64,000 nucleotides of DNA from Candidatus Woesearchaeota archaeon. GTDB lineage: Archaea; Nanobdellota; Nanobdellia; Pacearchaeales; GW2011-AR1. The stretch spans positions 6,975 through 70,974 of the forward strand of contig CAYPRJ010000001.1 of NCBI GenBank assembly GCA_964413095.1. The letters run 5' to 3'. This document shows positions 1,583 through 60,510 of the stretch, piece by piece. Position 1 is the stretch's first letter. The number at the start of each line of letters is the position of its first letter. The position numbers and the translations under genes were made by a program. The notes under the pieces are model-generated. The model was not told the origin of the DNA. It ran no database searches and saw only the letters and a program-made list of their open reading frames with translations.

Positions 1583-1885
1583 ATGGTTGAATGGCTAACT
1601 TATGGATTACAAGTTGAAATTGTTACAATTGGATTGCTGATTTATGGACTGGCTGTTTTTTTAAGAGCTGTAAAACGTATTGATCAAGAATATAGGTTTG
1701 CAATTTTTTTAGTTTTGCTTGCTTTAATAATGGAAGTTATTCAGGGAACTATGGGAAGAATTCTTTTAACAAGCAATATAGGTGTTGAAAGTCCCCTATG
1801 GTTAGTATCACCTTTTGTTGGGGTTGTTGGAGCATATTTTTTAGTTTTAGGAGCAAGAAAATTTCTTTCAGCAAGTGAGAAGTAA
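1583..1885 (+). CDS. small integral membrane protein
   Basis: 100 aa, three hydrophobic segments, inside the pilus locus. Confidence 0.3.
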   Translation: MVEWLTYGLQVEIVTIGLLIYGLAVFLRAVKRIDQEYRFAIFLVLLALIMEVIQGTMGRILLTSNIGVESPLWLVSPFVGVVGAYFLVLGARKFLSASEK

Positions 1886-1930
1886 GTTTAACAATATATT
1901 TATTAATTGGTTTTATTTTTTTAATAAGAG

Positions 1931-4114
1931 GTGAATATGGCAAAATCTCAGAAGAAGCCAAGTGTTGATGATATTCTTAGAAAGTATGGGGCGAAGATAG
2001 AAGGAAAAATTAAGACTTCTGGTGTAAATCGAAAAGTAAAAACAGATTATAGCAGAGAGTATGTTAAATTTAAAAGTGAGATGGCTCCTGAACTTTCAAA
2101 ATTTGAAAAATGGTGTCATAGTCTTGGAAATATTTTAAAATTAAAAATTTCAGAAAAAGACGAGAAAAAAATTAAAAGACAGATTGAAATTGCACATCTC
2201 GACATAGAGCCATGGCAGGCATTGACTTTAAGTGTTGTTGCTTTTGCAAGTGTTTTTATTTTTGGTTTGTTGGCGTCTGTATTAGTAGCTTTAATTAGAG
2301 GAGGTATTTCTGAATTTCCTTTTTTGTTTTTCTTTTTAATGATTATTGTTTCTTTTTTTTCATTTTATATTGTTAATGGAATTCCTGCAAGGCTTGCTAA
2401 CAAGTGGAGACTTAAAGCTTCTTCACAAATGGTGCCAGCAATTTTGTATATTGTTATTTATATGAGGCACACACCCAATCTTGAAAGAGCAATTTCTTTT
2501 GCTTCTGAGCATTTACAATACCCTCTTGCTTTAGATTTTAAAAGAGTTTTTTATGGTGTTTCTGTTGGAAAATTTTCTACAATTAAAGAAAGTTTAGACA
2601 ACTACTTAGAGACATGGAGAGATTATTCTATTGAATTTATTGAAAGTTTTCATTTGATAGAAAGCAGTTTGTTTGAGCCAAATGAAGAGAGGAGAATTGC
2701 TTCTCTTGAAAAAGCTTTACAGGTTGTACTTGACGGAGTTTATGGTAAGATGCTTAAATTTACCCACAAGGTAAGAAGCCCTTTGACTAATGTTTATATG
2801 CTCGGAGTTGTTTTGCCGACTCTTGGTTTAGCTTTGTTGCCATTGGCTTCTGCAATGCTTGGAGGTTTTTTAAAATGGCATCATGTTCTTATTTTGTTTA
2901 ATCTTATACTTCCTTTTTTGGTTTTTTATCTTACAGATAAAATTATGTTTTTGCGTCCTGGTGGCTATGGTGAAACAGACTTATTAGAAAGAAATCCTCT
3001 GTATTCCAAATATAAAGATAACAGCCATTACACAAAAGCTTTTTTGATTTGTCTTCCTTTTTTGCTTATAGGTTTGTTGCCTTTAATTTTTCAATACACC
3101 CCAATTCCAGAAATTCTTGGTTTGCAAAGTGATTATACTTTTTCTAATTTAGGGTTGGGTCTTTTAGGAGATGAATCTATTTTTGGGTTTATAGAAACTA
3201 CTGAAGGTTTTAAGGGACCTTTTGGTGTTGGAGCTTTAGTTTTTAGTATGTTTATTCCATTAGGAATAGCTTTATTTTTTTCAACAGCTTTTAAGTCTAA
3301 GACAAAAGAATTAATTGTAGAAAGGAAAAAAACAAAGCAATTAGAAAAAGAGTTTAATAATTCTCTTTTTCAGTTAGGAAATAGAATAGGTAATGGGACT
3401 CCTCCTGAACTTGCTTTTGGAAAAGTTGCAGAATCTTCTCGCGGTTTGATAACAGAGAATTTTTTTAACAGAGTAAATTATAATATAAGGCAAATGGGTA
3501 TGAGCGTTGAGAAAGCTATTTTTGATCCAAAAATTGGAGCTATGAGATACTATCCTTCTGCATTAATTCTTACAAGTATGAGAATTCTTATAGAATCAGC
3601 AAAAAAAGGTTTAAAGATTGCTGCTAGGAGTCTTATGAGCATTTCAGAGTATGTAAAAAATATACAAAAAATAACTAGCAGACTTAAAGATTTGCTTGCA
3701 GAAATAGTTTCTGATATGAAAAGTAATATGACTTTTTTAGCTCCTTTACTTTCTGGAGTTGTTGTTGGTTTATCTATTATGATTACTTCTATTTTAGGGA
3801 AATTAAATTTAGCAAGTCTATCAGAAACAGATGTTGGAATTGGAAACTTAGATACAATTTTAAATATTTTTAATTTAGGAAACATGATTCCTCCTTATTA
3901 TTTGCAAATAATAATTGGTGTTTATTTAATTGAAATAGTTTTTATTTTAACAAGAACACTTGTGGCAATTGATTCAGGAGAAGATAAATTAGAAAAAACA
4001 AATAAAATAGGAAAAAATCTTATGAAAGGAATTACTCTTTATTTTATTGTAGCTCTTTTAGCAACTTTAGCTTTGTTTGTTTTAAGTTCTGTGGTTCTTG
4101 GAAATTTAGTTTAA
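1931..4114 (+). CDS. FlaJ/TadC-like polytopic membrane platform protein of type IV pilus machinery
   Basis: 727 aa with many TM helices and large cytoplasmic loops, immediately downstream of the FlaI-like ATPase, which is the canonical gene order. This is a family-level call. Confidence 0.5.
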   Translation: MNMAKSQKKPSVDDILRKYGAKIEGKIKTSGVNRKVKTDYSREYVKFKSEMAPELSKFEKWCHSLGNILKLKISEKDEKKIKRQIEIAHLDIEPWQALTLSVVAFASVFIFGLLASVLVALIRGGISEFPFLFFFLMIIVSFFSFYIVNGIPARLANKWRLKASSQMVPAILYIVIYMRHTPNLERAISFASEHLQYPLALDFKRVFYGVSVGKFSTIKESLDNYLETWRDYSIEFIESFHLIESSLFEPNEERRIASLEKALQVVLDGVYGKMLKFTHKVRSPLTNVYMLGVVLPTLGLALLPLASAMLGGFLKWHHVLILFNLILPFLVFYLTDKIMFLRPGGYGETDLLERNPLYSKYKDNSHYTKAFLICLPFLLIGLLPLIFQYTPIPEILGLQSDYTFSNLGLGLLGDESIFGFIETTEGFKGPFGVGALVFSMFIPLGIALFFSTAFKSKTKELIVERKKTKQLEKEFNNSLFQLGNRIGNGTPPELAFGKVAESSRGLITENFFNRVNYNIRQMGMSVEKAIFDPKIGAMRYYPSALILTSMRILIESAKKGLKIAARSLMSISEYVKNIQKITSRLKDLLAEIVSDMKSNMTFLAPLLSGVVVGLSIMITSILGKLNLASLSETDVGIGNLDTILNIFNLGNMIPPYYLQIIIGVYLIEIVFILTRTLVAIDSGEDKLEKTNKIGKNLMKGITLYFIVALLATLALFVLSSVVLGNLV

Positions 4115-4168: not shown

Positions 4169-5302
4169 ATGAAAGGATATGATAGAGAAGAACAATTAAG
4201 ACAACAAGCATCTTTTTATGGGTTTAGAAAAAACCAGGAAGAAAAAGAAAGTATAAAGAAGCTTGTTAGAAAGTTATCTTTTGCCGGAGGAATAATATTG
4301 TTTTCTATGGGAGCTTGGCAAGCATCTTCGTCTTTTGTTGAAGAATTTAAGGAAAAAGAAAAAGATATCGCTAGACTTCAAAAATCTTATGATAATAAGA
4401 TTGAAGAATTTAAAAATTTAGAAGACAAAAACAAAAACTTAGAAAAAATTATTGAAGAGATTTTACCAAAATTAGAAAACAGGATAGCTAGTATAGAAGA
4501 ATCAGATCCTGGAATTATGTGGGATGCTGAAAATCTTATTAATAAATTAAGAGGGGGATATAATCAAGAGATTGATTTAAGAGAGTTAGAATCTTTGGTG
4601 ACAATTATTCCCAATAATATTACCAGAGCACAGCATACTTTGCTTGAAAGAAAACATGGAATTAATCTTTACAAACCCACTGAATCTTTTATAAAAAATC
4701 ATTTAGCAAATAATGGACATACTTATGTTACAAGTGAGCAAGGACAGAGAACACATGTTAAATTTAATGTAAATGAGTTAGATATTAGAGATATAGGAGG
4801 TAATTGGTTTTATATTGATGGGGAGCTTGGTTCTTGGAAAAAGGAAACTGTCAAAGGAATGAATGCATTTGTAAGGGATATTTTTCATAATGCAATTGAT
4901 TTATTTAATTCTTATGATAAAAGTATTTTTGTGAGGCATGAAGGGGAGATTGTTCTTTTTGAAGATTTTCATTCTGATGGCATTGAAGACCCTTATAATG
5001 ATCCTCTTGGAAGAAGTTGTATTTATGGGTTTGAGGAAGAAGGAAAAAAATATAGAGTTCAACTTTCTCATTTGAATGATGAATTACCTATAAAATTTAA
5101 ACCAGGAGACAAAGTTTATCCAGGAGATATTTTGGGAATTATTGGGAAAACAGGATTTGCTACAGGCCCACACCTTGATGTTAGATATTTTAAAAAAGAA
5201 AATAATGGGTGGAAAGAACTGATTTTATATTCAAATCGCACTTTTAATCCAGGAGAAAATTTTCTTTATGTTGACTGGATAAATAAGGACTGGAGAGAAT
5301 AA
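4169..5302 (+). CDS. M23 (LytM/lysostaphin)-like metallopeptidase with N-terminal TM and coiled-coil
   Basis: C-terminal GDKVYPGDILGIIGKTGFATGPHLDVRYF resembles the M23 signature G.TG.STGPHLHFE. An upstream HNAID gives an HxxxD motif at about 90 aa spacing. The second His of HxH is replaced by Asp. Confidence 0.55.
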   Translation: MKGYDREEQLRQQASFYGFRKNQEEKESIKKLVRKLSFAGGIILFSMGAWQASSSFVEEFKEKEKDIARLQKSYDNKIEEFKNLEDKNKNLEKIIEEILPKLENRIASIEESDPGIMWDAENLINKLRGGYNQEIDLRELESLVTIIPNNITRAQHTLLERKHGINLYKPTESFIKNHLANNGHTYVTSEQGQRTHVKFNVNELDIRDIGGNWFYIDGELGSWKKETVKGMNAFVRDIFHNAIDLFNSYDKSIFVRHEGEIVLFEDFHSDGIEDPYNDPLGRSCIYGFEEEGKKYRVQLSHLNDELPIKFKPGDKVYPGDILGIIGKTGFATGPHLDVRYFKKENNGWKELILYSNRTFNPGENFLYVDWINKDWRE

Positions 5303-5503
5303 TATCGTCTGCTTTGTTGAAAAAGTTGTTATTTTTTTGACTTATTAAACATTTTTTGACTTATTAAACAGAAAATTAGCTTCTTTGTTCGCAGATTGAT
5401 AAATTATTATTTGTGAGATTTTATTATTAGTTATTAATCGTGAGCTGAAAGCAAAAGCAATATTTTTTAACCAGATTTTAATTATTAAACAGAGTTAATT
5501 TTA

Positions 5504-5524
5504 TCTAAACATTTATTAATATCT
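5504..5524 (+). promoter_or_regulatory. conserved 21-nt promoter motif tctaaacatttattaatatct (BRE/TATA-like) 16 nt upstream of a pilin operon ATG
   Basis: An identical 21-mer occurs at 9312-9332 with identical 16-nt spacing to the ATG at 9349. A variant aaacatttattaataaat is at 1539-1556. Confidence 0.6.
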
Positions 5525-5540
5525 TCTTCTCTTTTTATAT

Positions 5541-5699
5541 ATGAGAAAAATAAAAAAAGGTGTTGTTTCAGAATATCTTCCTTGGTTATTAATAGCAATT
5601 GCAGTTCTTGCTATAGTTATGATTACTCTTTTTTTGCTGAAAGATAGGGGATTTTCTTTGATTGATAAAATAAAAGATTTATTTACAGGGGGCATATAA
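5541..5699 (+). CDS. small pilin-like protein (class III signal peptide candidate)
   Basis: MRKIKKG|VVSEYLPWLLIAIAVLAIV: basic N-terminus, then Gly, then a hydrophobic helix. The stop overlaps the next start. Confidence 0.35.
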   Translation: MRKIKKGVVSEYLPWLLIAIAVLAIVMITLFLLKDRGFSLIDKIKDLFTGGI

Positions 5700-5866
5700 T
5701 GGCAAATTTAACAGTTCCTCAGTTAATTAAAATTATTATTGGAATTGCTGTAGTTGTTGTTGTAATTCTTGGTTTATTTTTATTTTTTAAAGAACAGGTA
5801 ATAGATTTTTTTAATAATTTTATAGGAGAAGAACCTCAAAAGTTTTTTCTTAGTTTTTTAAAATGA
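5699..5866 (+). CDS. small membrane protein
   Basis: 55 aa with one TM. Its ATG overlaps the preceding stop (ATAATGG) and its TGA overlaps the next ATG. Confidence 0.3.
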   Translation: MANLTVPQLIKIIIGIAVVVVVILGLFLFFKEQVIDFFNNFIGEEPQKFFLSFLK

Positions 5867-6378
5867 GAAATAAAAAAGGATTTTTATTAGGAGAAGAAAC
5901 CCTGAAAATAATTTTAGCTTTAGTTGCTATTGGTTTTTTAATTTATTTTTTAGTTTCTTTATATCTAGCAAACAGCAAAAGTAAAGATTTGGAACTTGCT
6001 GAAGCATCTTTAGAGCATTTAATTGAAGAAATAAATTCAAAAAATAGTGAAATTGAAATTTATAATCCTGAAGGTTGGTGGATAATTTCTTGGCCTTATG
6101 AAGGGATTATTCCTAATTCTTGTTCTAATGTTGGCTGGGAAAATTGTGTTTGTATTTATAGAGGGGAATCAGGTATAGGCAAGTTTTTTAAAAATTTAGG
6201 AAGCAGAATGGGTTTAAGCAAAGATGAAAAAGAAAGATTAGCAATTATTGTAGATGATGAGGAAAGAGCTCTTTGTCTAGAAAGTGATTTTTCTTTTGAA
6301 ACAAACCCAACAAAAATACAAAATCCTCCTTTAACATTAAACATAGAATATAATGAGGAAATAATAATAACAAGGTAA
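5863..6378 (+). CDS. pilin-like protein
   Basis: MRNKKGF|LLGEETLKIILALVAIGFLIYFLV class III signal-like N-terminus, 171 aa. Confidence 0.4.
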   Translation: MRNKKGFLLGEETLKIILALVAIGFLIYFLVSLYLANSKSKDLELAEASLEHLIEEINSKNSEIEIYNPEGWWIISWPYEGIIPNSCSNVGWENCVCIYRGESGIGKFFKNLGSRMGLSKDEKERLAIIVDDEERALCLESDFSFETNPTKIQNPPLTLNIEYNEEIIITR

Positions 6379-6379
6379 A

Positions 6380-6484
6380 ATGGATTTAGATGCATTAATA
6401 AAATATTTAATATGGATTGTTTTTTTTGGATTAGCTTTGGCTGGGATGTATTTTATGCTTAAAAGATTTGGAGTAGTAGGATGA
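6380..6484 (+). CDS. small membrane peptide
   Basis: 34 aa (MDLDALIKYLIWIVFFGLALAGMYF...). The stop overlaps the ATG of the next gene. Confidence 0.25.
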   Translation: MDLDALIKYLIWIVFFGLALAGMYFMLKRFGVVG

Positions 6485-7257
6485 AAGTTAATTCAGGTAA
6501 AAAAGGTGAAATTTCAACAAGATATTTAATTATGATAATAATTTTAATTGCAAGTTTTGCTATAATTTTGTTTTTTATTTTTAGATTGAATTTACAAGAA
6601 ACAGGTGATAAAGAAATTTGCCATAATTCTGTTGTTTTAAAATCAAAAGGAAAAGGACTTGTGGGAGATTTGGATTGCAAGACAAATTATGTTTGTATTT
6701 CTGGAGGAAAAGATTGTGAGGGAATAAATCCTACTACTACAATTAAGGTTGATCCTAAAAACAAAGAAGAAATTATGAAGGCAATAGCAGAAGAAATGGC
6801 AGATTGCTGGTGGATGTTTGGGGAAGGAGAATTGGATTATTTAGGTTTAGGAGAAGAAGGACTCTCAAAAACAACTTGCGCAATGTGTTCTATTATTAAG
6901 TTTGATGAAAAGATATTAAAAGAAGATTATAAAATAACTTATACAGAATTTTATGAATATCTTAATACAATTAAAAAAGATGAATCTCAGACTTATTTAA
7001 CTTATTTGTATGATGTTTATAATATTAAAGAACTTCAGGAAAACTTTTTCTTAGATAAGGATATTGAGAAAAATTTTATTTTAACAAAAGATAGATATGC
7101 AATTGTAACAGGAGTAAAAAAAGGAGCTACAATTAAGGTTTTTGGAAAAGATATTAATTTGCCTTGGTTTAAGAGAAATTTAATTCCTTCTTATTATATT
7201 AAATCTGAAAGTTTAAGTGAAGAGTTGGGTTGCGATGAGTATGTTACTAAGGCTTAG
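6481..7257 (+). CDS. pilin-like / Cys-containing secreted protein
   Basis: N-terminal KKGE then a hydrophobic helix. 258 aa with multiple Cys pairs in the mature part. Confidence 0.4.
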   Translation: MKVNSGKKGEISTRYLIMIIILIASFAIILFFIFRLNLQETGDKEICHNSVVLKSKGKGLVGDLDCKTNYVCISGGKDCEGINPTTTIKVDPKNKEEIMKAIAEEMADCWWMFGEGELDYLGLGEEGLSKTTCAMCSIIKFDEKILKEDYKITYTEFYEYLNTIKKDESQTYLTYLYDVYNIKELQENFFLDKDIEKNFILTKDRYAIVTGVKKGATIKVFGKDINLPWFKRNLIPSYYIKSESLSEELGCDEYVTKA

Positions 7258-9253
7258 AAAGATACTCTTTAGAACGTTTTGTTAAGTATAGTAGACCATG
7301 GTAAGTATCTATACCTTCTTCTTTAAAACTCTCAATGAATTTTTTATTTAAATTAGGTAACATAAAGATGAAATTTCTTCCCATTCTTTTTCCAAGTTCT
7401 GAAACTTTTCTTATAGCTTCTTCTTCTGGGATGTTTTTCTTTTCATAACTTTCAACTAATTCTTCAATTGGAGAAATGAAATTTCTTTTAATAAATCCAT
7501 TTAATTCTTCTTTACTCATATTATAAAGAGTCCTTTGAAATTTTGCTGCTTCTCTAAAATATTCTCCAGATTTAGAGATGGGTATATCTAAAATTTTGTA
7601 GGGATCTTCATCATATACTTCGTTGAGATAAAATTCTCCTCCTATTCTTTTTTGGTAATTTATTAAAGAATCAAGATAAGCTCTTTCAGTGTTTATATCC
7701 AGTTCTTCATCTAATATAAATATTGGAACAAAACCCTTTGATATAAAGGCCATACCTACATTTCCGTATCCAGGGAAACCGAATGTCTCTTCTTTACCCA
7801 CCTTATTTAGAAAGTCCCACGCATCTGTATTTTCCTTAAACTGCCAAATTTCTAGTTGTAGCATATTTGGATCAGATGCTTTTAAGGATTGAATGTTTTC
7901 TGTGTTATATAAAGCAGCTCCTAGACCTATAAGGTTTAGTTCATCCAATTCCCAATTTTCTTCTCTCATCTTAGCTATTTCTCTTTTATTAAGGATGTAA
8001 GGAAGTGTTCTTCCTTCAATATCTTGGATAAGTGAGATTCCTTCCAACTCCTCTCCTTGCAAGAAATAATCCTCTAATGTTTGAGGTCCTCTTTCGGCAA
8101 GTTCCTTTTCTTGTTGAAAAAGAATTTTTGAGAAATTAACTAGGTTTGCATAATAATCATCTAAATTTTTGCTGAAAACTTTAGAGTTCATTCCAAGATT
8201 TGCTTCTAATCCTCCCAGCATTTTCCAAGATGATTTTTCAGAATTTATTGCTAAAGAACCTTCTATTTCTGCACTTGGTCCAGCAATGCCGTAAACTAAG
8301 AAGTTTAGTCTTGGTTCAACATATGCATTTAAATTAGAAATCTTAGAAAGTTCAGGAGGAGAGAAATTAAAAGAGTTTGAAAAATCACTATCTTTATCCC
8401 ATTTTTTATCTTTATATGAAACTCCAGCACTTATAGAATTTTCTTCTGTTATAGAAGTTTCTATTGGAGAAATACTTCCCTCTAATCCAATATATAATTG
8501 TAATTCTGGTTTTATTATTATTGGCAGAGGAGTTCCTGGGATTACTCCTGCATTAAAAGGGGGGAAATTATATTGAGCGATTTTTATTTCTTTATTTATA
8601 TCTTCGAGGGATTCAGAAGAATTTATTTCTAATTCATATCCAATATCAGATTTATTTCTAAAAGATAATTCTTTTAAGGAGTTGTTTTGAATGTCACAAT
8701 TTATAAAAAATTTTGAATAAAAATTGAAATTTCCGTTTGCAGTTATTTGGTCTTCTGTAGTAGTTTTGTCTCCATCAGCATCATATAAAACAATTTCTTT
8801 GAAATCGTGATTTATATTAAGAGAACCTGCTTCATGGTGTTTTTTAAATGTTCCTTCTTTAGTTTTAAGAATATATTCTCCTGAAGGAGGGGATACTTCT
8901 AATTCAAAAGATGCATTTTTTACAGCCTCTTCTAAAGTGGCATCTTCTATTTGTATTGTCTTTTTATCTTCAGAAACATTATTTACTTTTTTTAAAAGTC
9001 CATAAGGGGTTGAATCGCTAATTCCTGTAGAGACTATATCTCCTGTAGAAAAAGAAACAGGTTCTGAGAAATCTATTCTGTTTTCTCCCACTGATGAAAT
9101 ATTTTTAATATCCTTTTCTGACAAAACAAGAGTATAAGGAGAAAGTTCATTTTTTGGTCCCAATAATGAAGAGATTTCTTTTTGACATCCTGCAAACAAA
9201 ACAGAAGCTCCTAGCAAAGCTCCAGCGATAATATTTCTAAGGTTTTTCTTCAT
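7247..9253 (-). CDS. secreted lipoprotein of unknown function (possible pilus-associated adhesin)
   Basis: N-terminus MKKNLRNIIAGALLGASVLFAGC has a lipobox Cys after a signal peptide. 668 aa, embedded among pilin genes. Confidence 0.5.
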   Translation of the reverse strand: MKKNLRNIIAGALLGASVLFAGCQKEISSLLGPKNELSPYTLVLSEKDIKNISSVGENRIDFSEPVSFSTGDIVSTGISDSTPYGLLKKVNNVSEDKKTIQIEDATLEEAVKNASFELEVSPPSGEYILKTKEGTFKKHHEAGSLNINHDFKEIVLYDADGDKTTTEDQITANGNFNFYSKFFINCDIQNNSLKELSFRNKSDIGYELEINSSESLEDINKEIKIAQYNFPPFNAGVIPGTPLPIIIKPELQLYIGLEGSISPIETSITEENSISAGVSYKDKKWDKDSDFSNSFNFSPPELSKISNLNAYVEPRLNFLVYGIAGPSAEIEGSLAINSEKSSWKMLGGLEANLGMNSKVFSKNLDDYYANLVNFSKILFQQEKELAERGPQTLEDYFLQGEELEGISLIQDIEGRTLPYILNKREIAKMREENWELDELNLIGLGAALYNTENIQSLKASDPNMLQLEIWQFKENTDAWDFLNKVGKEETFGFPGYGNVGMAFISKGFVPIFILDEELDINTERAYLDSLINYQKRIGGEFYLNEVYDEDPYKILDIPISKSGEYFREAAKFQRTLYNMSKEELNGFIKRNFISPIEELVESYEKKNIPEEEAIRKVSELGKRMGRNFIFMLPNLNKKFIESFKEEGIDTYHGLLYLTKRSKEYLSKP

Positions 9254-9311: not shown

Positions 9312-9332
9312 TCTAAACATTTATTAATATCT
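9312..9332 (+). promoter_or_regulatory. second copy of the 21-nt pilin promoter motif
   Basis: Exact match to 5504-5524. The ATG at 9349 is 16 nt downstream. Confidence 0.6.
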
Positions 9333-9348
9333 TTGTGTTTTTTAAAAT

Positions 9349-9747
9349 ATGAAGAATAAAAGAGGTGCAAATATTTTAACAGAGAACCTTATTTTTATTA
9401 TTTTGAATTTGGTTTTTATAAGTATTTTAATTATTTTTTTATTTTCTAAGACAGGAAGTGCTGCTGTTTTAGAGGAGAAATATGCTAAGCAAATAGCTTT
9501 GATAATTGATTCCGCAAAACCACAAATGACAATTAAACTTAATATGAAAGATGCTATTGATAAAGCAAAAAAAGAATGGGATGAATCAAAAATAGATGAA
9601 ATAGTGAAGATTAATGGCAATATTGTCTCAGTAAAACTTAGAGAGAAGGGAGGTTATAGTTATTCATTTTTTAATGATATAGAAGCTAATGTATATCTTG
9701 ATACTACAAATAATGAAGAATATATTATTACAGTAAATGAAAAATAA
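9349..9747 (+). CDS. pilin-like protein
   Basis: MKNKRGA|NILTENLIFIILNLVFISILIIFLF: KRG then a hydrophobic stretch typical of archaeal prepilins. 132 aa. Confidence 0.45.
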   Translation: MKNKRGANILTENLIFIILNLVFISILIIFLFSKTGSAAVLEEKYAKQIALIIDSAKPQMTIKLNMKDAIDKAKKEWDESKIDEIVKINGNIVSVKLREKGGYSYSFFNDIEANVYLDTTNNEEYIITVNEK

Positions 9748-10930
9748 AAAGCTAAGTTGGAAATTGAATAAAAAAGGGGACAAAATAATCTCTGTTTATT
9801 GGTTTGTAATTTTGTTTATTGTAGTTGCAGCTGTTGTTTATATGGCCTATCTTTTTTATGGAACTCCTTATGATGCAAGAGCTGTTGAAGCAAGAGTTTT
9901 AAAAAATAAAATTGCAGATTGTTTATCTGAAGGAGGATATTTAAAAGAAAAAGTTTTAACAGAAAATTTCAAGGATAATTTTTTAGAGAAATGCGATTTA
10001 AACTTAAATGTTGAGGATGCTTATGGTTGGGAAGATGACCAGTATTATATTAAGGTGAGTTTTTATGAATTTGATAATGATTTTTCAGGTAATTTAGGAA
10101 ATTTAATTGAAGAGATAGAAGTTGGAAATATTAATTTAGTTTCTTATGCCATTCAAGAGCAAAAAGAAAAAAGCAAAAAAGATGAGATGGATACAATTGT
10201 GATTCATTATACAGAAGGTTTTTCTGCCAGAGGAGCAATTGAAACAATAAAAGATAATAATTTAAGTGTGCATTATATGATTGATAGAGATGGAACAATT
10301 ATTTCAAAAGAAAATGCTGATAACTTTTTGGAAGGAGGAGAAAAAGCCTTTGTTGGAGAAGATGAGAGAGGAGCTCATGCTGGATGTTATGATATCAGGA
10401 AAGGAGAAGAAAGAAGAAAATGCACTGAAGAAGATTTTGAAAATTTAAATTCAATTAATAATAGTTGTGATTTATTTGATTTAAACGAGGAAGAAAAATG
10501 TTGTATTCCTAGTTTTAACACGCATTCTATTGGAATAGAGCTTGTAAATCTTGGTTCTAAGTGTAATGAAGAAACTGTTTTAACAGAAAATTATTGCGAG
10601 GATAATGAAGTAGAAATTTGTGGAAAAAAATGGGAGAATTTCACTGCAGAACAAATTAGTTCTTTAATGAATTTAGCTTCAGAAATTGCTTCAAGAAATA
10701 AGATTCCTATTGACAGGGAGCACATAATTGGACATGACGAGATTGCTTTTGGGTTTAAATCAGATCCTGGTCCTGCATTTCCCTGGAAAAGCTTTATAGA
10801 AAATTTGAAAATTAGAGAAACACTAACTCCTAATTTAGAAAGAAGTTTTTATGTTTTAGATAAAAATACTAATGAAAAATATGTAATTAAAATTTTGACA
10901 ATTGTAAGAAAAACAGAAAAAAATGCTTAA
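9737..10930 (+). CDS. N-acetylmuramoyl-L-alanine amidase (amidase_2 / AmpD-PGRP family) with N-terminal membrane anchor and Cys-rich insertion
   Basis: IVIHYTEG...SVHYMIDRDGTI, GAHAG, NTHSIGIELVN, and HIIGHDEIAFGFKSDPGPAFPW match the amidase_2 Zn-amidase blocks of T7 lysozyme and AmpD (GH..i..K.DPGP.F). Confidence 0.8.
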   Translation: MKNKKLSWKLNKKGDKIISVYWFVILFIVVAAVVYMAYLFYGTPYDARAVEARVLKNKIADCLSEGGYLKEKVLTENFKDNFLEKCDLNLNVEDAYGWEDDQYYIKVSFYEFDNDFSGNLGNLIEEIEVGNINLVSYAIQEQKEKSKKDEMDTIVIHYTEGFSARGAIETIKDNNLSVHYMIDRDGTIISKENADNFLEGGEKAFVGEDERGAHAGCYDIRKGEERRKCTEEDFENLNSINNSCDLFDLNEEEKCCIPSFNTHSIGIELVNLGSKCNEETVLTENYCEDNEVEICGKKWENFTAEQISSLMNLASEIASRNKIPIDREHIIGHDEIAFGFKSDPGPAFPWKSFIENLKIRETLTPNLERSFYVLDKNTNEKYVIKILTIVRKTEKNA

Positions 10931-11793: not shown

Positions 11794-11831
11794 TTGGAAA
11801 GTTTTATAAATAAAATATTCTTCAAATATTT

Positions 11832-12323
11832 ATGTTGAATAAAAGAGGTCAGGGTTTAAGCACTAATGCTATAATATTAATTATTTTGGGTGTTGTTGTT
11901 TTAGTTATTTTAATAATAGGATTTACTCTTGGATGGGGAACCTTGAAAGACAGAATAACTGGTGGAGGAAATAATGTTGATGATGTTGTTCAGGAATGTA
12001 GTTCAGCATGCGCTACTTTAAGCAGATATAGTTATTGTTCTGCAAAAAAGGAATTAAAAACAGAAGATGAAACATTAACTAATGTTACTTGTTATTATTT
12101 AGCTGAAAAGCAACCACAATATGGAATTGAAAAATGTTCTGCTTTGAGTTGTGATTATGTGTTTGTAGATGTAGATGTAAATGAAGGAGAGACAATTGAA
12201 GACAAGTGTAAAGATAATGAAGAAAATGCAATTCAGGCATTAAAAGGAGAGACAATTCAGGCCTTAATAGATAATGAATTAATTAGTCATGATTGTCCTG
12301 CACAATCTGAAACTGCTGAATAA
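11832..12323 (+). CDS. archaeal type IV pilin (class III signal peptide)
   Basis: MLNKRGQ|GLSTNAIILIILGVVVLVILIIGF has the canonical KRGQ prepilin-peptidase site. The mature part is Cys-rich. Confidence 0.55.
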   Translation: MLNKRGQGLSTNAIILIILGVVVLVILIIGFTLGWGTLKDRITGGGNNVDDVVQECSSACATLSRYSYCSAKKELKTEDETLTNVTCYYLAEKQPQYGIEKCSALSCDYVFVDVDVNEGETIEDKCKDNEENAIQALKGETIQALIDNELISHDCPAQSETAE

Positions 12324-12673: not shown

Positions 12674-13522
12674 ATGGAAGAGGTGATTTTTTTAATAATT
12701 TTAGCATTAATCTGGATTATTTTTGCTGTTGTTCAGGATTTAAGAAATAGAGAAATTGCTAATTGGTTAAATTTTTCTTTAATAATTTTTGCCTTGGGGT
12801 TTAGGTTTTTTTATTCTCTGTTTTCTGAAACAGTGAGTTTTTCTTTTTTTTATCAAGGACTTTTAGGTCTGGGAATTTTTTTTGCATTAGGAAACTTGCT
12901 TTATTATAGTAGAATGTTTGCAGGAGGAGATGCAAAACTTATGATTTCTTTAGGGGCTGTGCTTCCTTTTTATAATGTTTTTTTTGACAATCTAAAAAAC
13001 TTTGTATTATTCTTTTTAATCTTTTTAGTTGTTGGTGCTTGTTATGGTTTTATTTCAAGTATTATTGTAACAGTAAAAAACTTTCAACCATTTAAAAAAG
13101 AATTTTCTTCACAAATAAAATCAAGAAAAAAAATATTATATGTTTTGATGGTTTTTGGTTTGGTATTAATGATTTTAGGATTTTTTGAAAATCTTTTTTT
13201 TCTTTTTGGTATTTTTTCTTTTATTTTCCCCTGGTTCTATATCTATGCAAAATCTGTTGATGAAGCATGTATGATTAAAAAAATCGAAGTGAAAAAATTA
13301 AGAGAAGGAGATTGGCTTTATAATAATGTAAAAATTGGGAAGAAGATAATTAAGGCAAAATGGGATGGTTTATCAAAAAAGGAAATCAAGGAGATAAGGA
13401 AGAAAAAGAAAAACGTGAAAATAAGAGAAGGAATTGCTTTTAGTCCTGTTTTTTTAATTAGTTTTATAATTTTGGCTTTATTTTATTTTTTGAAAATAGA
13501 TTTATGGAATTTTATAATTTAA
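12674..13522 (+). CDS. prepilin/preflagellin peptidase (A24 family, PibD/FlaK-like) with Lys-rich C-terminal extension
   Basis: Polytopic membrane protein with VQDLRNREIANW (first Asp motif) and FAGGDAKLMISLGAV (the GxGD-type second catalytic Asp motif of A24 peptidases). Confidence 0.65.
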   Translation: MEEVIFLIILALIWIIFAVVQDLRNREIANWLNFSLIIFALGFRFFYSLFSETVSFSFFYQGLLGLGIFFALGNLLYYSRMFAGGDAKLMISLGAVLPFYNVFFDNLKNFVLFFLIFLVVGACYGFISSIIVTVKNFQPFKKEFSSQIKSRKKILYVLMVFGLVLMILGFFENLFFLFGIFSFIFPWFYIYAKSVDEACMIKKIEVKKLREGDWLYNNVKIGKKIIKAKWDGLSKKEIKEIRKKKKNVKIREGIAFSPVFLISFIILALFYFLKIDLWNFII

Positions 13523-14488: not shown

Positions 14489-14652
14489 AGTATCTCTGAT
14501 ACTTATAAATGGTATTCTTATTTTTCAATAACTTGGCTCACTTCATTCGCTATTAATAAATATAATTAATGCTAAAACCAACGAGGATTGCAGTTATTTG
14601 TGGATTAATTTGAGCTGATAGGCGAACTATTTTTCATTCAAAAAAACTCATC
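14489..14652. repeat. ~165-bp element, copy A of an inverted repeat pair (partner at 60348-60510, about 95% identical)
   Basis: Direct comparison: the reverse complement of 60348-60510 aligns to 14489-14652 with about 5 mismatches or indels. Confidence 0.85.
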
Positions 14653-14707
14653 GGAGACTAGTTTAGTTTATAATAATACTTAAAAAGATTTAATCTTTTT
14701 TTATTAG

Positions 14708-40584: not shown

Positions 40585-40720
40585 AGCCTGTGGAGGGATT
40601 CTAACCCCCGGCCTACTGCTGGCTTTCTGAACATGTAGTTGGCTCAGATACAAGGCAGTTGAGCATATCTTAACCTTTTAGAGTCACAGATATTCCGCTC
40701 TAACACTGAGCTACACAGGC
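40585..40720 (-). tRNA. tRNA-Thr(TGT) with two introns (~36 nt after the D-arm, ~28 nt at 37/38)
   Basis: Reverse complement: acceptor GCCTGTG/CACAGGC, D-arm GCTC..GAGC, anticodon stem ACTGC/GCAGT with loop CTTGTA|intron|A, T-arm GGGGG-TTAGAAT-CCCTC. Confidence 0.6.
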
Positions 40721-41334
40721 TTAATATTAGACAGAGTTATATTCTTTAAAAAGTTTTGTCCCTTCAATCTTAATGGAAGTTTATTATCAAATCTTATATA
40801 ATAAAAAGGAATTTTATTTGTATAATTTATTTTTATTTTGGAACAATTTAGATTAAGTTCGTCGCATAATTTACTTACCCCTTTTATTAAATTAAATCTT
40901 TTCTGTTTAAGCTGAATTCTTTTATTATACACAGAACCATCTGTATCAACTAATCCTGCTAGATAATTTAGTGCACAAGTTTTATTTGTTTTAACTATCT
41001 TTGGGATTTTCCCAAATTTCTTCTTTCCAATTTCACTTTCTAATTTTACAAAATAAAAAAATAACCCTGCGTTTTCTATCTTTAAATAATATGAATTTTG
41101 TTTTCTATTATCTTTGTTAATCTTTCCATTAACTGAAAAAAGTTTGTTTAACACGTTTCTAATGTAATCAATATAGATTTCACTCCCTGAATAAACTCTG
41201 AGAAGATAATGATAACCTCCTTTTTTTCTTTTCGTTATACTTAAAGAACCATCACCTTCTATAACTCCTAAAAGATATGCAATATCTTTATTTATTGTGG
41301 GTATGTTTATTTCACTCCTTCTTGTTTTTATCAT
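40711..41334 (-). CDS. free-standing LAGLIDADG homing endonuclease-like protein
   Basis: Two LAGLIDADG motifs, YLLGVIEGDGSL and YLAGLVDTDGSV. 207 aa. The stop codon lies inside the 5' acceptor stem of tRNA-Thr. Confidence 0.8.
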   Translation of the reverse strand: MIKTRRSEINIPTINKDIAYLLGVIEGDGSLSITKRKKGGYHYLLRVYSGSEIYIDYIRNVLNKLFSVNGKINKDNRKQNSYYLKIENAGLFFYFVKLESEIGKKKFGKIPKIVKTNKTCALNYLAGLVDTDGSVYNKRIQLKQKRFNLIKGVSKLCDELNLNCSKIKINYTNKIPFYYIRFDNKLPLRLKGQNFLKNITLSNIKPV

Positions 41335-41474
41335 ATCTCTTTCTACTTTGTGATATATTCCTTTATTGGATAATTCTTTATTCCTTTATTGGATAATTCT
41401 TTAGATATCTTTTTAATCATCTTTTAGAGCGTCTGAACTGCACTTAATAAGAAAGATTTAGTTTAAAAGATTTC

Positions 41475-42610: not shown

Positions 42611-42719
42611 TGGTCCTGCGCGGAATTGAACCGCGGTTTTATCCATTTTGTGAACAGCTTACAGATTTAAGTGAACTGAACTCGTCAAGGACATGTCTTA
42701 GCCACTGGACTACAGGACC
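42611..42719 (-). tRNA. tRNA-Val(GAC) with ~37-nt anticodon-loop intron
   Basis: Reverse complement: acceptor GGTCCTG/CAGGACC, D-arm GTC-AGTGGCTAA-GAC, anticodon stem TGTCC/GGATA with loop TTGACG, T-arm CGCGG-TTCAATT-CCGCG. Confidence 0.6.
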
Positions 42720-51533: not shown

Positions 51534-51720
51534 TAGTTAAATTACGCGGGAGAAAGGATTCGAATGAAAACTTCTGACTCTGAAATCACACTTCCAGCAA
51601 CCTGAATCCTATTTATGCGGGAGAAAGGATTCAAATTCAAAACCTCGCGGTTTTGTATCCAGATGCAACTTCCTCTTTTTGCCTTTGAAGGAAGTTATCA
51701 TATAGTTCGAATCCTATTTA

Positions 51721-51858
51721 TGCGGGAGAAAGGATTCGAACCTTCGCAGGCACTAAGCCAACAGGTTTCTTCGAGTTAGTTTGCGTTATTTGTGAGACAT
51801 AATCTCTCGCAATCTTCTCGCCTAAGCCTGTCCCGTTTGACCACTCCGGCACTCCCGC
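51721..51858 (-). tRNA. tRNA-Leu(TAG), class II with long variable arm, 54-nt intron at 37/38
   Basis: Reverse complement: acceptor GCGGGAG/CTCCCGC, anticodon stem ACAGG/CCTGT with loop CTTAGG|intron|A, variable arm TGGCTTAGTGCCTGC, T-arm GAAGG-TTCGAAT-CCTTT. Confidence 0.7.
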
Positions 51859-52012: not shown

Positions 52013-53011
52013 TTATTTCTTTTTTAAATCAGCTTCTTTTTGTTTTATTTTTTCTTCAAGTTTTAATTTTTCTATGAGTTCTTTATAACGATTTCTTATT
52101 GTAACTTCTGTTATGCCTGCAATATCTGCAACTTCTCTTTGTGTTTTTTTCTCGTCGTTCATTAAAGCTGCCACATATAAAGCTGCTGCAGCAATTCCTG
52201 CTGGTCCACGTCCTGAAGTTAATTCAACTTTTTCTGCTTGTTTTAAAATTTTTAATGCGTCGTTTTGTGTTTTTGGAGAGAGTTTTAATATTGAGGAAAA
52301 TCTGGAAATATAATCTTTTGGAGAACTTTGTTTTACTTTTATTCCTAACTTTCTAATTATGAATCTGTAAGTTCTTCCTATTTCTTTCCTCTCAACATCT
52401 GAAGCAGTTGCCATCTCGTCTAATGTTCGTGGGATGTTGTAACTTCTGCAAGCAGCATATAAACAAGCTGCAATTACTGATTCCATGCTTCTCCCTCTTA
52501 CTAAACCTCTTTGTAAAACATAATTGTAAATTCTCGCAGCTTCATCTCTTACTACATTTGGCAAATTTAAATAAGAAGCAATAACTCTAAGTTCTGCCAT
52601 TGCTAATCTTAAATTTCTTTCAATAGAAGTTGAAACTCTTTCTTGCCATTTTTTTAGCCGTAAAAATTTCCGAGTTTGTCCTGGTTCTAGTTTGTAGATG
52701 TCTGAAATTTCTCCAACATTTGTTGTTAGACCTTTGTCAAATTTTTGCATACTTATTGGAGCTCCACCACGACCTTTTTTTTCATCTTTGTCAAAACTTC
52801 CAGATAAATCTATTCCTGTATCTGTCATTTTTTCTTCTATGACAAGACCACAATCATTACAAATAATTTCTCCTAAATGAGGATCATAAGTAATATTTAC
52901 ACTTCCACATTCAGGACATTTTTTTATAGAGGTCATTTGAGTTGTTTTTAGCCATTTTAAGACTAAAGAAATTTTGTTACTTAGAGGTTGGTAAAAAGGT
53001 TTATAAACCAA
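52013..53011 (-). CDS. tfb: transcription initiation factor TFB (TFIIB homolog)
   Basis: N-terminal Zn ribbon CPECGS...CNDCG, the B-linker and two cyclin repeats. 332 aa. Confidence 0.9.
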   Translation of the reverse strand: MVYKPFYQPLSNKISLVLKWLKTTQMTSIKKCPECGSVNITYDPHLGEIICNDCGLVIEEKMTDTGIDLSGSFDKDEKKGRGGAPISMQKFDKGLTTNVGEISDIYKLEPGQTRKFLRLKKWQERVSTSIERNLRLAMAELRVIASYLNLPNVVRDEAARIYNYVLQRGLVRGRSMESVIAACLYAACRSYNIPRTLDEMATASDVERKEIGRTYRFIIRKLGIKVKQSSPKDYISRFSSILKLSPKTQNDALKILKQAEKVELTSGRGPAGIAAAALYVAALMNDEKKTQREVADIAGITEVTIRNRYKELIEKLKLEEKIKQKEADLKKK

Positions 53012-55738: not shown

Positions 55739-55913
55739 TTTTTTGAATTGGTTAATAGAAAGATTTTAAATATTCTATTTTTCTTTGATTAATAGTGAGC
55801 CCCTGTAGCTCACGTAAGAAACCAAGGTTCCTTGACGTTCAACCTCCTTTGTGGCACTGTTGGGTGATTTCAAGTTGCCTTCGGTGAAATCGCGGACGCT
55901 ACAGGAGACAAGC

Positions 55914-56037
55914 CCCTGTAGCTCAGCCTGGATAGAGCGACTGCCTTCTATGCTATTGGCAGTGTCGTACATTGTTGCGATTATTTGTCTTCAGCGGATA
56001 GCAGTAGGCCGCAGGTTCGAATCCTGTCGGGGGCATT
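55914..56037 (+). tRNA. tRNA-Arg(TCT) with 49-nt intron at 37/38
   Basis: Acceptor GCCCCTG/CGGGGGC, D-arm GCTC-AGCCTGGATA-GAGC, anticodon stem ACTGC/GCAGT with loop CTTCTA|intron|A, T-arm GCAGG-TTCGAAT-CCTGT. Confidence 0.65.
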
Positions 56038-60225: not shown

Positions 60226-60347
60226 CAAGATTACTAGAGAAAATTGATTTAAAAGTTTTAGTATTAAAGGCTTTGATAAAACATAAGAATTTCTTAACTT
60301 CCTGCTCATTACTCGCAGGTTTTTTTAGATTTAATAGAACTATCTCA

Positions 60348-60510
60348 GATGAGTTTTTTTGAATGAAAAATAGTTCGCCTATCAGCTCAAATTAATCACA
60401 AATAACTGCAATCCTCGTTGGTTTTAGCATTAATTATATTATCAATAGCGAATGAAGTGAGCCAAATTATTGAAAAATACGAATACCATTTATAAGTATC
60501 AGAGATACTC
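60348..60510. repeat. ~165-bp element, copy B (inverted relative to 14489-14652)
   Basis: See copy A. It lies immediately 5' of tRNA-Met on the minus strand. Confidence 0.85.

Follow-up and report, generated by a model that had tools for sequence, protein, structure and literature searches.

The window (by which we mean the whole stretch of DNA that was analysed, 64,000 nt in length) belongs to a Pacearchaeota-type DPANN archaeon of 28% GC, and it can be recognised as archaeal because it encodes a TFB (TFIIB homologue), an RPA-like OB-fold protein and intron-bearing tRNAs. Its first 13.5 kb are a type IV filament locus, the features of which are given here together with the distant TFB gene:

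34–987, + strand: T2SSE-type secretion ATPase, C-terminal part (PF00437, E 1.8e-13)
1583–4114, + strand: membrane protein of 100 aa and multi-pass putative platform protein of 725 aa (the latter at 1937–4114)
4169–5302: M23 peptidase (domain match)
5541–7257, + strand: operon 1, five tightly packed genes of 52, 55, 171, 34 and 258 aa
9349–11793, + strand: operon 2, genes of 132, 397 (Amidase_2), 174 and 117 aa, all with pilin-like N-termini
11832–12323, + strand: last pilin-like gene
12674–13522, + strand: class III signal (prepilin) peptidase, Peptidase_A24 (PF01478, E 1.3e-12)
52013–52936, − strand: TFB (TFIIB repeats, E 4.9e-49; zinc ribbon)

Full-length orthologues of the ATPase measure 760–777 aa in related loci. 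The family of the platform candidate numbers more than 2,900 proteins (E ≤ 1e-20), and its named members are ‘Candidatus Pacearchaeota’ or ‘Nanoarchaeota’ MAG proteins, sometimes called TadB by JGI; the candidate has no significant Pfam, NCBIfam or PDB profile match, and T2SSF appears at E 0.16 in only three of 18 members. Several operon-1 products start with a short basic N-terminus that ends in K/R-G ahead of a hydrophobic stretch, an arrangement resembling a class III signal peptide. By eye, N-termini of this type are MRKIKKG/VVSEYLPWLLIAIAV, MKNKRG/ANILTENLIFIIL and MLNKRGQG/LSTNAIILIIL. No significant Pfam, NCBIfam or PDB profile match was obtained for the pilin-like proteins, Pfam N_methyl staying below threshold at E 0.26. 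The pilin and platform labels are thus to be read as putative; they rest on N-terminal or multi-pass features together with the context of the locus. As for the TFB gene, the initial annotation had correctly reported its presence and had given its extent as 52013–53011, which is the maximal, TTG-started ORF; the gene itself occupies 52013–52936.

The gene order of operon 1 is retained in L015, L016, L019 and L021–L028 (related loci from other genomes). What appears to be a gap in this operon is occupied by a 34-aa ORF at 6380–6484 (MDLDALIKYLIWIVFFGLALAGMYFMLKRFGVVG), which an ORF cut-off of 40 aa overlooks. Counterparts of 33–34 aa are called in the same place in L022, L023, L024 and L028, and the ORF therefore encodes a small conserved membrane protein.

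Peptidoglycan-hydrolase domains (M23 and Amidase_2, with SLT in L018) are encoded inside these archaeal pilus operons:

Window: 4169–5302 and 9737–10930
L015: 1972–3090
L019: 15388–16602
L028: 14736–15953
L018: 16659–17504

The Amidase_2 protein at 9737–10930 has a pilin-like N-terminus of its own (basic, K-G, then a hydrophobic stretch), and this hints that the filament machine may export or display a wall-cutting enzyme against bacterial cells.

Upstream of operons 1 and 2 the window contains an exact repeat of 22 nt, TCTAAACATTTATTAATATCT(T), at 5504–5525 and 9312–9333, the two copies being direct repeats 3,808 nt apart. The initial annotation had described 21 of these bases at 5504–5524 and 9312–9332, exactly 16 nt upstream of the first ATG of a pilin-like gene run in both cases, and we find the same, apart from the one additional base: 16 nt lie between the end of the 21-mer and the ATGs at 5541 and 9349. 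A degenerate copy that had been placed at 1539–1556 does exist, but its extent is 1536–1556, with three mismatches, and it lies 5’ of the 100-aa membrane gene at 1583. The predicted promoters of the locus that bear on the 21-mer are as follows:

5504–5524, + strand: core promoter of operon 1, consisting of TCTAAACA (5504–5511), TATA box TTTATTAAT (5512–5520) and then ATCT
9312–9332, + strand: core promoter of operon 2, same sequence as that of operon 1, with the TATA box at 9320–9328
1536–1556, + strand: promoter of the 100-aa membrane gene, TCAAAACATTTATTAATAAAT, with TATA at −39 and GAGGTG at −11 to −6
1891–1911, + strand: promoter of the 725-aa platform gene, with TATA box TTTATTAAT (1899–1907) at −38 and a GAGGTG leader
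11797–11813, + strand: consensus-type promoter GAAAGTTTTATAAATAA of the last pilin-like gene, differing in class from the 21-mer

The identity of the two copies in the window ends after 22 nt, and their flanks are unrelated. A 668-aa gene (7247–9253, − strand) has a divergent promoter, the BRE of which is 22 nt away from the operon-2 copy. The only dyad or direct-repeat structure within the motif is the palindrome TATTAATA inside the TATA box, and the outer TCT...TCT of the 21-mer is not retained in other versions of the promoter.

With about 28% GC (27–34%), the window holds many chance repeats of 16–19 nt, and these, like the direct orientation of the copies 3,808 nt apart, would be in keeping with an AT-rich chance repeat, a promoter of the sigma-70 type, or recombination or phase-variation repeats flanking a 3.8-kb segment. 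We regard all of this as extremely improbable. Chance is contradicted by two statistics. The 21-mer at ≤3 mismatches was observed three times, against a mean of 0.04 in 100 dinucleotide-preserving shuffles, none of which reached three (0/100). A stricter expectation for promoters was drawn from the column frequencies of 37 aligned window promoters (666 pairs, 21 columns): here an identical 21-mer has P = 7e-7 per pair, with 5e-4 identical pairs expected among the 666. Real pairwise identities between these promoters centre on 11/21 and reach a maximum of 17/21, bar the motif pair (21) and one pair at 19/21; the 21/21 identity thus exceeds what two promoters of one genome would share. As to sigma-70, the organism is archaeal, and a search for bacterial sites of this type showed no enrichment, with 22 found and 23 expected. 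Recombination finds no counterpart in a recombinase, none having been found in the locus, and between genomes the distance and the intervening genes vary while the motif stays at promoters.

The place of the motif relative to the start codon becomes clear from the general promoter of this genome. When the start positions of TTTAWWWW were recorded in the 60 nt upstream of 69 listed ORFs, the element began exactly at −29 from the ATG in 14 window genes, against 0–4 at any other offset, and alignment of the window promoters on the TATA box gave the consensus aaAAAnA-TTTAtAAA-ta. The motif core TTTATTAA occupies −29 to −22 from both ATGs (centre about −25.5), which matches the genome-wide peak, and the A-rich flank sits where the BRE-like consensus does: TCTAAACA has A at −5, −4, −3 and −1, positions at which 58–85% of the other window promoters have A. 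The TATA-like core and A-rich, BRE-like 5’ flank that the initial annotation had proposed are therefore well placed. Its argument that an exact repeat with the same spacing is improbable by chance, in turn, stands for the identity only: because a TATA box at −29 is the default of the genome, the equal spacing of the two copies carries no extra weight.

The same genes tell apart two modes of initiation. A TATA box at −31 to −27 without a Shine-Dalgarno sequence was seen in 30 cases, a Shine-Dalgarno sequence without such a box in eight, and both together in one; this near-exclusion suggests leaderless transcription from BRE/TATA promoters, and the earlier proposal that the spacing fits leaderless transcripts agrees with it. 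The 16-nt spacers behind the two copies are T-rich and contain no GGAGG/GAGGT-type motif, and each ATG has a pyrimidine at −1 and a purine at +1 (T5540/A5541 and T9348/A9349), a pyrimidine preceding the ATG in all seven sites that carry the 21-mer (exact or 20/21). We predict the operon-1 transcript to start at or adjoining A5541 and the operon-2 transcript to start at A9349. Upstream of the membrane and platform genes the degenerate copy is likewise found in a promoter position, as had been noted, but the arrangement is unlike that of the −29 sites, with the TATA box at −39 or −38 and a GAGGTG leader; leaders of about 10 nt with a Shine-Dalgarno sequence are predicted for these two genes. The BRE part of the platform-gene promoter has diverged in the window and is identical to TCTAAACA in L016, L018, L019 and L026. 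To judge by these sequences, the promoter model for the genome would be a TATA box at −29 with most first genes leaderless, and a minority led by a Shine-Dalgarno sequence with the TATA box at about −38.

To our knowledge there is no experimental knowledge of transcription in Pacearchaeota, which are uncultivated. In other archaea, leaderless genes have a promoter box at a distance of about 26 nt from their starts (PMC6028130), and an A-rich BRE is found beside a TATA box of 7–8 bp, a T(A/G) initiator overlapping the start codon in leaderless mRNAs (PMC7289017). Compared with the BRE/TATA leaderless promoters of Sulfolobus, Haloferax and Halobacterium (GeneMarkS-2 ‘group D’; PMC6028130, PMC7289017), the motif has in common an A-rich BRE adjoining a T/A box of 8–9 nt, a fixed distance to the start codon, the lack of a Shine-Dalgarno sequence and a pyrimidine/purine step at the start, which is predicted here. 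In kind, it is a standard archaeal BRE/TATA promoter for leaderless genes. It differs from these promoters in that its exact version of 17–21 nt is common to several operons and kept across distant lineages, and in its TATA variant, TTTATTAAT as against the local consensus TTTATAAAT/TTTAAATA.

Among 185,579 species-representative genomes the 21-mer gave four matches only, all by chance and in unrelated bacteria, and viral contigs yielded one chance match and no relatives of the platform protein. A metagenome collection contained 12 sites, five of which were followed by 16 nt and an ATG; the remaining seven, with neither an ATG at +16 nor a pilus context, were set aside as chance occurrences in AT-rich DNA. 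L015 (Ga0209541_10000530, 36.7% GC) carries the exact 21-mer twice, before the orthologues of the genes at 5541 and 9349, and L016 (Ga0222637_1004192, 31% GC) carries it before the 5541 orthologue. L012 has it at the operon-2 position, where it starts 4 nt past the stop codon of the gene orthologous to that of 258 aa, and L019 has a 20/21 match at its operon-2 promoter. Eleven further pilus loci were retrieved via homologues of the platform protein, and the ATPase-to-RPA gene order was retained in all pilus loci compared.

The lineages that share the motif are distant from one another. Platform proteins of nine genomes are 69–78% identical in a star-like pattern (89% in one closer pair). Those lineages that have the exact 21-mer do not cluster closely, their platform proteins being 69–72% identical. 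The platform gene is 67–73% identical at the DNA level and 44–54% at third codon positions. Against this background, mean pairwise identity over seven sites in five lineages is 99% for the motif, 30% for the 21 nt upstream of it, 59% for the 16-nt spacer and 45% for the first 21 coding nt. This marks the motif as an island under purifying selection, not as something left over from a recent duplication. In L015 and L012 it lies within intergenic gaps of 42–53 nt or less, and since it fills such short gaps it is self-contained and independent of an upstream site.

These comparisons bear on a second reading, in which the copies would be a neutral, functionless remnant of a recent duplication or gene conversion between the operons. 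We consider it very improbable. The identity in the window ends at 22 nt with unrelated flanks, and the same 21-mer is found at orthologous sites in lineages whose synonymous sites are saturated. What speaks for such a process is that the L015 copies are identical far past the 21-mer, and some intragenomic homogenisation may occur: the two pilin promoters of that genome, at 3824–3861 and 6505–6542 (− strand), share 36 of the 37 nt that run from the motif to the ATG, which suggests homogenisation between both of them.

The motif belongs to a wider class of promoters. We compared 40 promoters of the platform/membrane genes, operon 1 and operon 2 from 13 genomes, and searched about 299 kb, made up of 64 kb of this genome and ±10 kb around the platform gene in 12 genomes. 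The 9-mer TTTATTAAT is 93–100% conserved per position in the 40 promoters, and the T at the sixth TATA position is present in 93% of them vs 9% of 33 other window promoters. The flank is more variable: about half of the 40 have TCTAAACA or a one-base variant of it, and the remainder mostly have TAGATAAT or TAGTTAAT. Rather than being frequent and without positional bias, an outcome that the initial annotation had said would speak against it, the 17-nt core TCTAAACATTTATTAAT occurs 17 times in the approximately 299 kb at ≤1 mismatch, and always at pilus-locus promoters. The promoter of the prepilin peptidase also belongs to the class in L026 and L028.

The class has its limits. TTTATTAAT at −29/−30 is also found before the non-pilus genes HIT (four genomes), DUF2238 (two) and IMPDH (one), and the last pilin-like gene (11832 and its orthologues) consistently has a promoter of the consensus type, TTTATAAA/TTTTTAAA. 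Across all genomes, the operon-1 and operon-2 promoters average 14.5 and 13.2 of 21. Promoters of other genes are similarly faithful: that of RPA keeps AATACTTAAAAA across genomes (mean 15.0/21), that of the ATPase keeps TAYAAAATATTTTAAAC (19/21 between L018 and L019), and that of A24 reaches up to 20/21 between genomes. Strong gene-specific BRE/TATA conservation is thus a general trait of the clade; particular to the pilus locus is that several operons of one machine share one promoter version.

Two candidate groupings among these promoters were rejected. The sites at 986–1002, preceding a 170-aa gene at 1021, and at 11797–11813, preceding the last pilin-like gene at 11832, form another nearly identical pair of promoters (GAAAGTTTTATAAATAA; 19/21 within the promoter frame, 24/26 overall). 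Their likeness is explained by the nearness of both to the general consensus; other genomes do not keep the pair, and it was not retained as a special class. Likewise, reading TAGATAAT...TTAGT/A as the TCTAA...TATCT flanks inverted around the TATA box fits three of six promoters and needs a 1-nt change of spacing.

The conservation of the class raises the question of whether something other than the basal factors reads it. The 21-mer might combine a core promoter with the operator of a pilus-specific factor, either a repressor that occludes TBP/TFB or an activator that stabilises them, such that one factor would switch all pilus operons jointly; such an operator would be compatible with a core promoter at the same site. 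In its favour, four to five lineages keep all 21 positions, even those that fall outside the general consensus; within the roughly 299 kb the motif is found at the pilus locus only, and the near-identity of the two L015 promoters extends up to the ATG. We nevertheless hold an operator to be rather unlikely. The RPA, ATPase and A24 promoters are similarly conserved with nothing to suggest a special factor, and there is no half-site symmetry beyond TATTAATA. The locus proteins that were scanned, several small ones of which have no assignment, showed no DNA-binding domain. Roughly half of the pilus promoters have a different flank, for instance TAGATAAT, and the conserved island is, by our estimate, about the size of a TBP/TFB footprint. 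Because housekeeping promoters are conserved almost as faithfully, a dedicated regulator is possible and not required.

Dedicated regulators of type IV filaments are known from other archaea, namely EarA at the Methanococcus fla promoter and ArnR/ArnR1 at the Sulfolobus archaellin promoter. Like their sites, the motif is a short conserved sequence at the promoter of a type IV filament operon that would coordinate expression of a machine. However, the EarA and ArnR sites are found farther upstream than the BRE, and the factors that bind them have been identified, whereas the conserved block here coincides with the BRE and TATA box, and some of the genomes compared leave no room for an upstream site.

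A further reading concerns the basal factors themselves. In haloarchaea, promoter classes have been attributed to alternative TBP/TFB pairs, and by the same token the TTTATTAAT/TCTAAACA version might be read by an alternative TBP or TFB paralogue. The class does differ from the bulk of promoters, having C at −7, C at −2 and T at the sixth TATA position, and it resembles the haloarchaeal classes in being a subset of promoters marked by specific BRE/TATA bases and tied to one gene set. Unlike in haloarchaea, no second TFB or TBP was found in the approximately 299 kb from 13 genomes: there is a single TFB gene, and none near any pilus locus. DPANN genomes are, moreover, small. We judge a paralogue improbable, and as the basal factor for the BRE part of the motif we expect the TFB at 52013–52936. 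Alternative TBP/TFB promoter classes of haloarchaea are mentioned in PMC7289017.

The reading that we prefer, with a probability of roughly 0.8, is that the motif represents a class of BRE/TATA core promoters through which the pilus operons are co-expressed, their mRNAs being leaderless. The shared promoter that the initial annotation had proposed finds support in the position of the TATA box, the BRE-like flank, the near-exclusion of TATA and Shine-Dalgarno sequences and the restriction to pilus loci. By position and by analogy with better-known archaea, TFB would read the A-rich flank (C)TAAACA and probably touch a few bases downstream of the TATA box too, and TBP would bind the TATA box TTTATTAA(T), which begins 29 nt before the ATG. 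RNA polymerase would open the T-rich spacer and initiate at or within one or two bases of the A of the ATG, and the mRNAs of the two pilin-like operons would be translated without a leader. The 21-mer would then be one sequence version of the general promoter, held by purifying selection across Pacearchaeota, and this version would precede the platform/membrane genes, operon 1, operon 2 and sometimes the prepilin peptidase. Since parts of the machine share one promoter class, we infer that they are expressed together, at a level set by the BRE/TATA version; with a version in common, they would be equal in basal strength and would respond alike to whatever acts on it. At the same time, all 21 positions are invariant, including TCT at −37 to −35 and ATCT at −20 to −17, which lie beyond the consensus, and a further reader of the site is conceivable on that account.

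Promoters are not analysed in a 2026 survey of archaeal TFF loci, and in the full-text literature searches no description of a promoter motif from DPANN archaea or Pacearchaeota came up. As far as we have searched, neither this particular box nor its link to Pacearchaeota type IV filament operons has been described. Current concepts of archaeal transcription are unchanged by the finding. Its use is more practical: the promoter model improves start-codon calls and operon maps for Pacearchaeota genomes, and TTTATTAAT, often as part of TCTAAACATTTATTAAT, is a short tag for type IV filament operons by which further members of the expression group can be found.

The promoters of RPA, the ATPase, EF1B and A24 (in the window and L018–L028) offer a parallel observation. 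Gene-specific versions are kept between orthologues although synonymous sites are saturated, and this suggests that basal promoter strength is finely adjusted in the clade, the genomes of which have few regulators.

One could go further and take the TCTAAACA-TTTATTAAT box as the cis-code of a lineage-wide Pacearchaeota pilus regulon, served by a dedicated regulator or a specialised TBP/TFB. This is a tentative proposal, to which we give perhaps one chance in several. If it were true, the whole surface-filament apparatus, including the embedded peptidoglycan hydrolases, would be switched jointly, presumably for contact with a host, and gene-specific BRE/TATA versions would carry much of the regulatory information in these regulator-poor genomes.

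Several other features of the window deserve mention. Between the M23 gene and the operon-1 promoter, TTTTTTGACTTATTAAACA is present in tandem at 5333–5370 and ATTATTAAACAG recurs at 5481–5492. The T runs could be archaeal termination signals for the upstream gene. In addition, AAACATTTTTTGA resembles a decayed copy of the promoter core.

A non-coding stretch of about 168 nt occurs twice in inverted orientation with about 97% identity, at 14489–14656 (+ strand) and 60344–60509 (− strand), one copy lying in the EF1B-RPA spacer and the other adjoining tRNA-Met. As the EF1B-RPA spacer is only about 90 nt in other Pacearchaeota loci, the stretch seems to have been inserted. Rfam gave no match to it, and neither strand is predicted to fold stably (z 0.2 and −0.3).

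Four tRNA genes of 109–138 nt (40585–40720, 42611–42719, 51721–51858 and 55912–56035) match the Rfam tRNA model and were missed by ARAGORN, and they are therefore probably intron-bearing. Segments of the GCGGGAGAAAGGATTCGAA type occur three times at 51546–51740, adjoining one of these tRNA genes. Finally, TATTCCTTTATTGGATAATTCTTTA (25 nt) is present twice at 41356–41403, with an offset of 23 nt and hence an overlap of 2 nt, just upstream of a minus-strand gene that ends at 41334.
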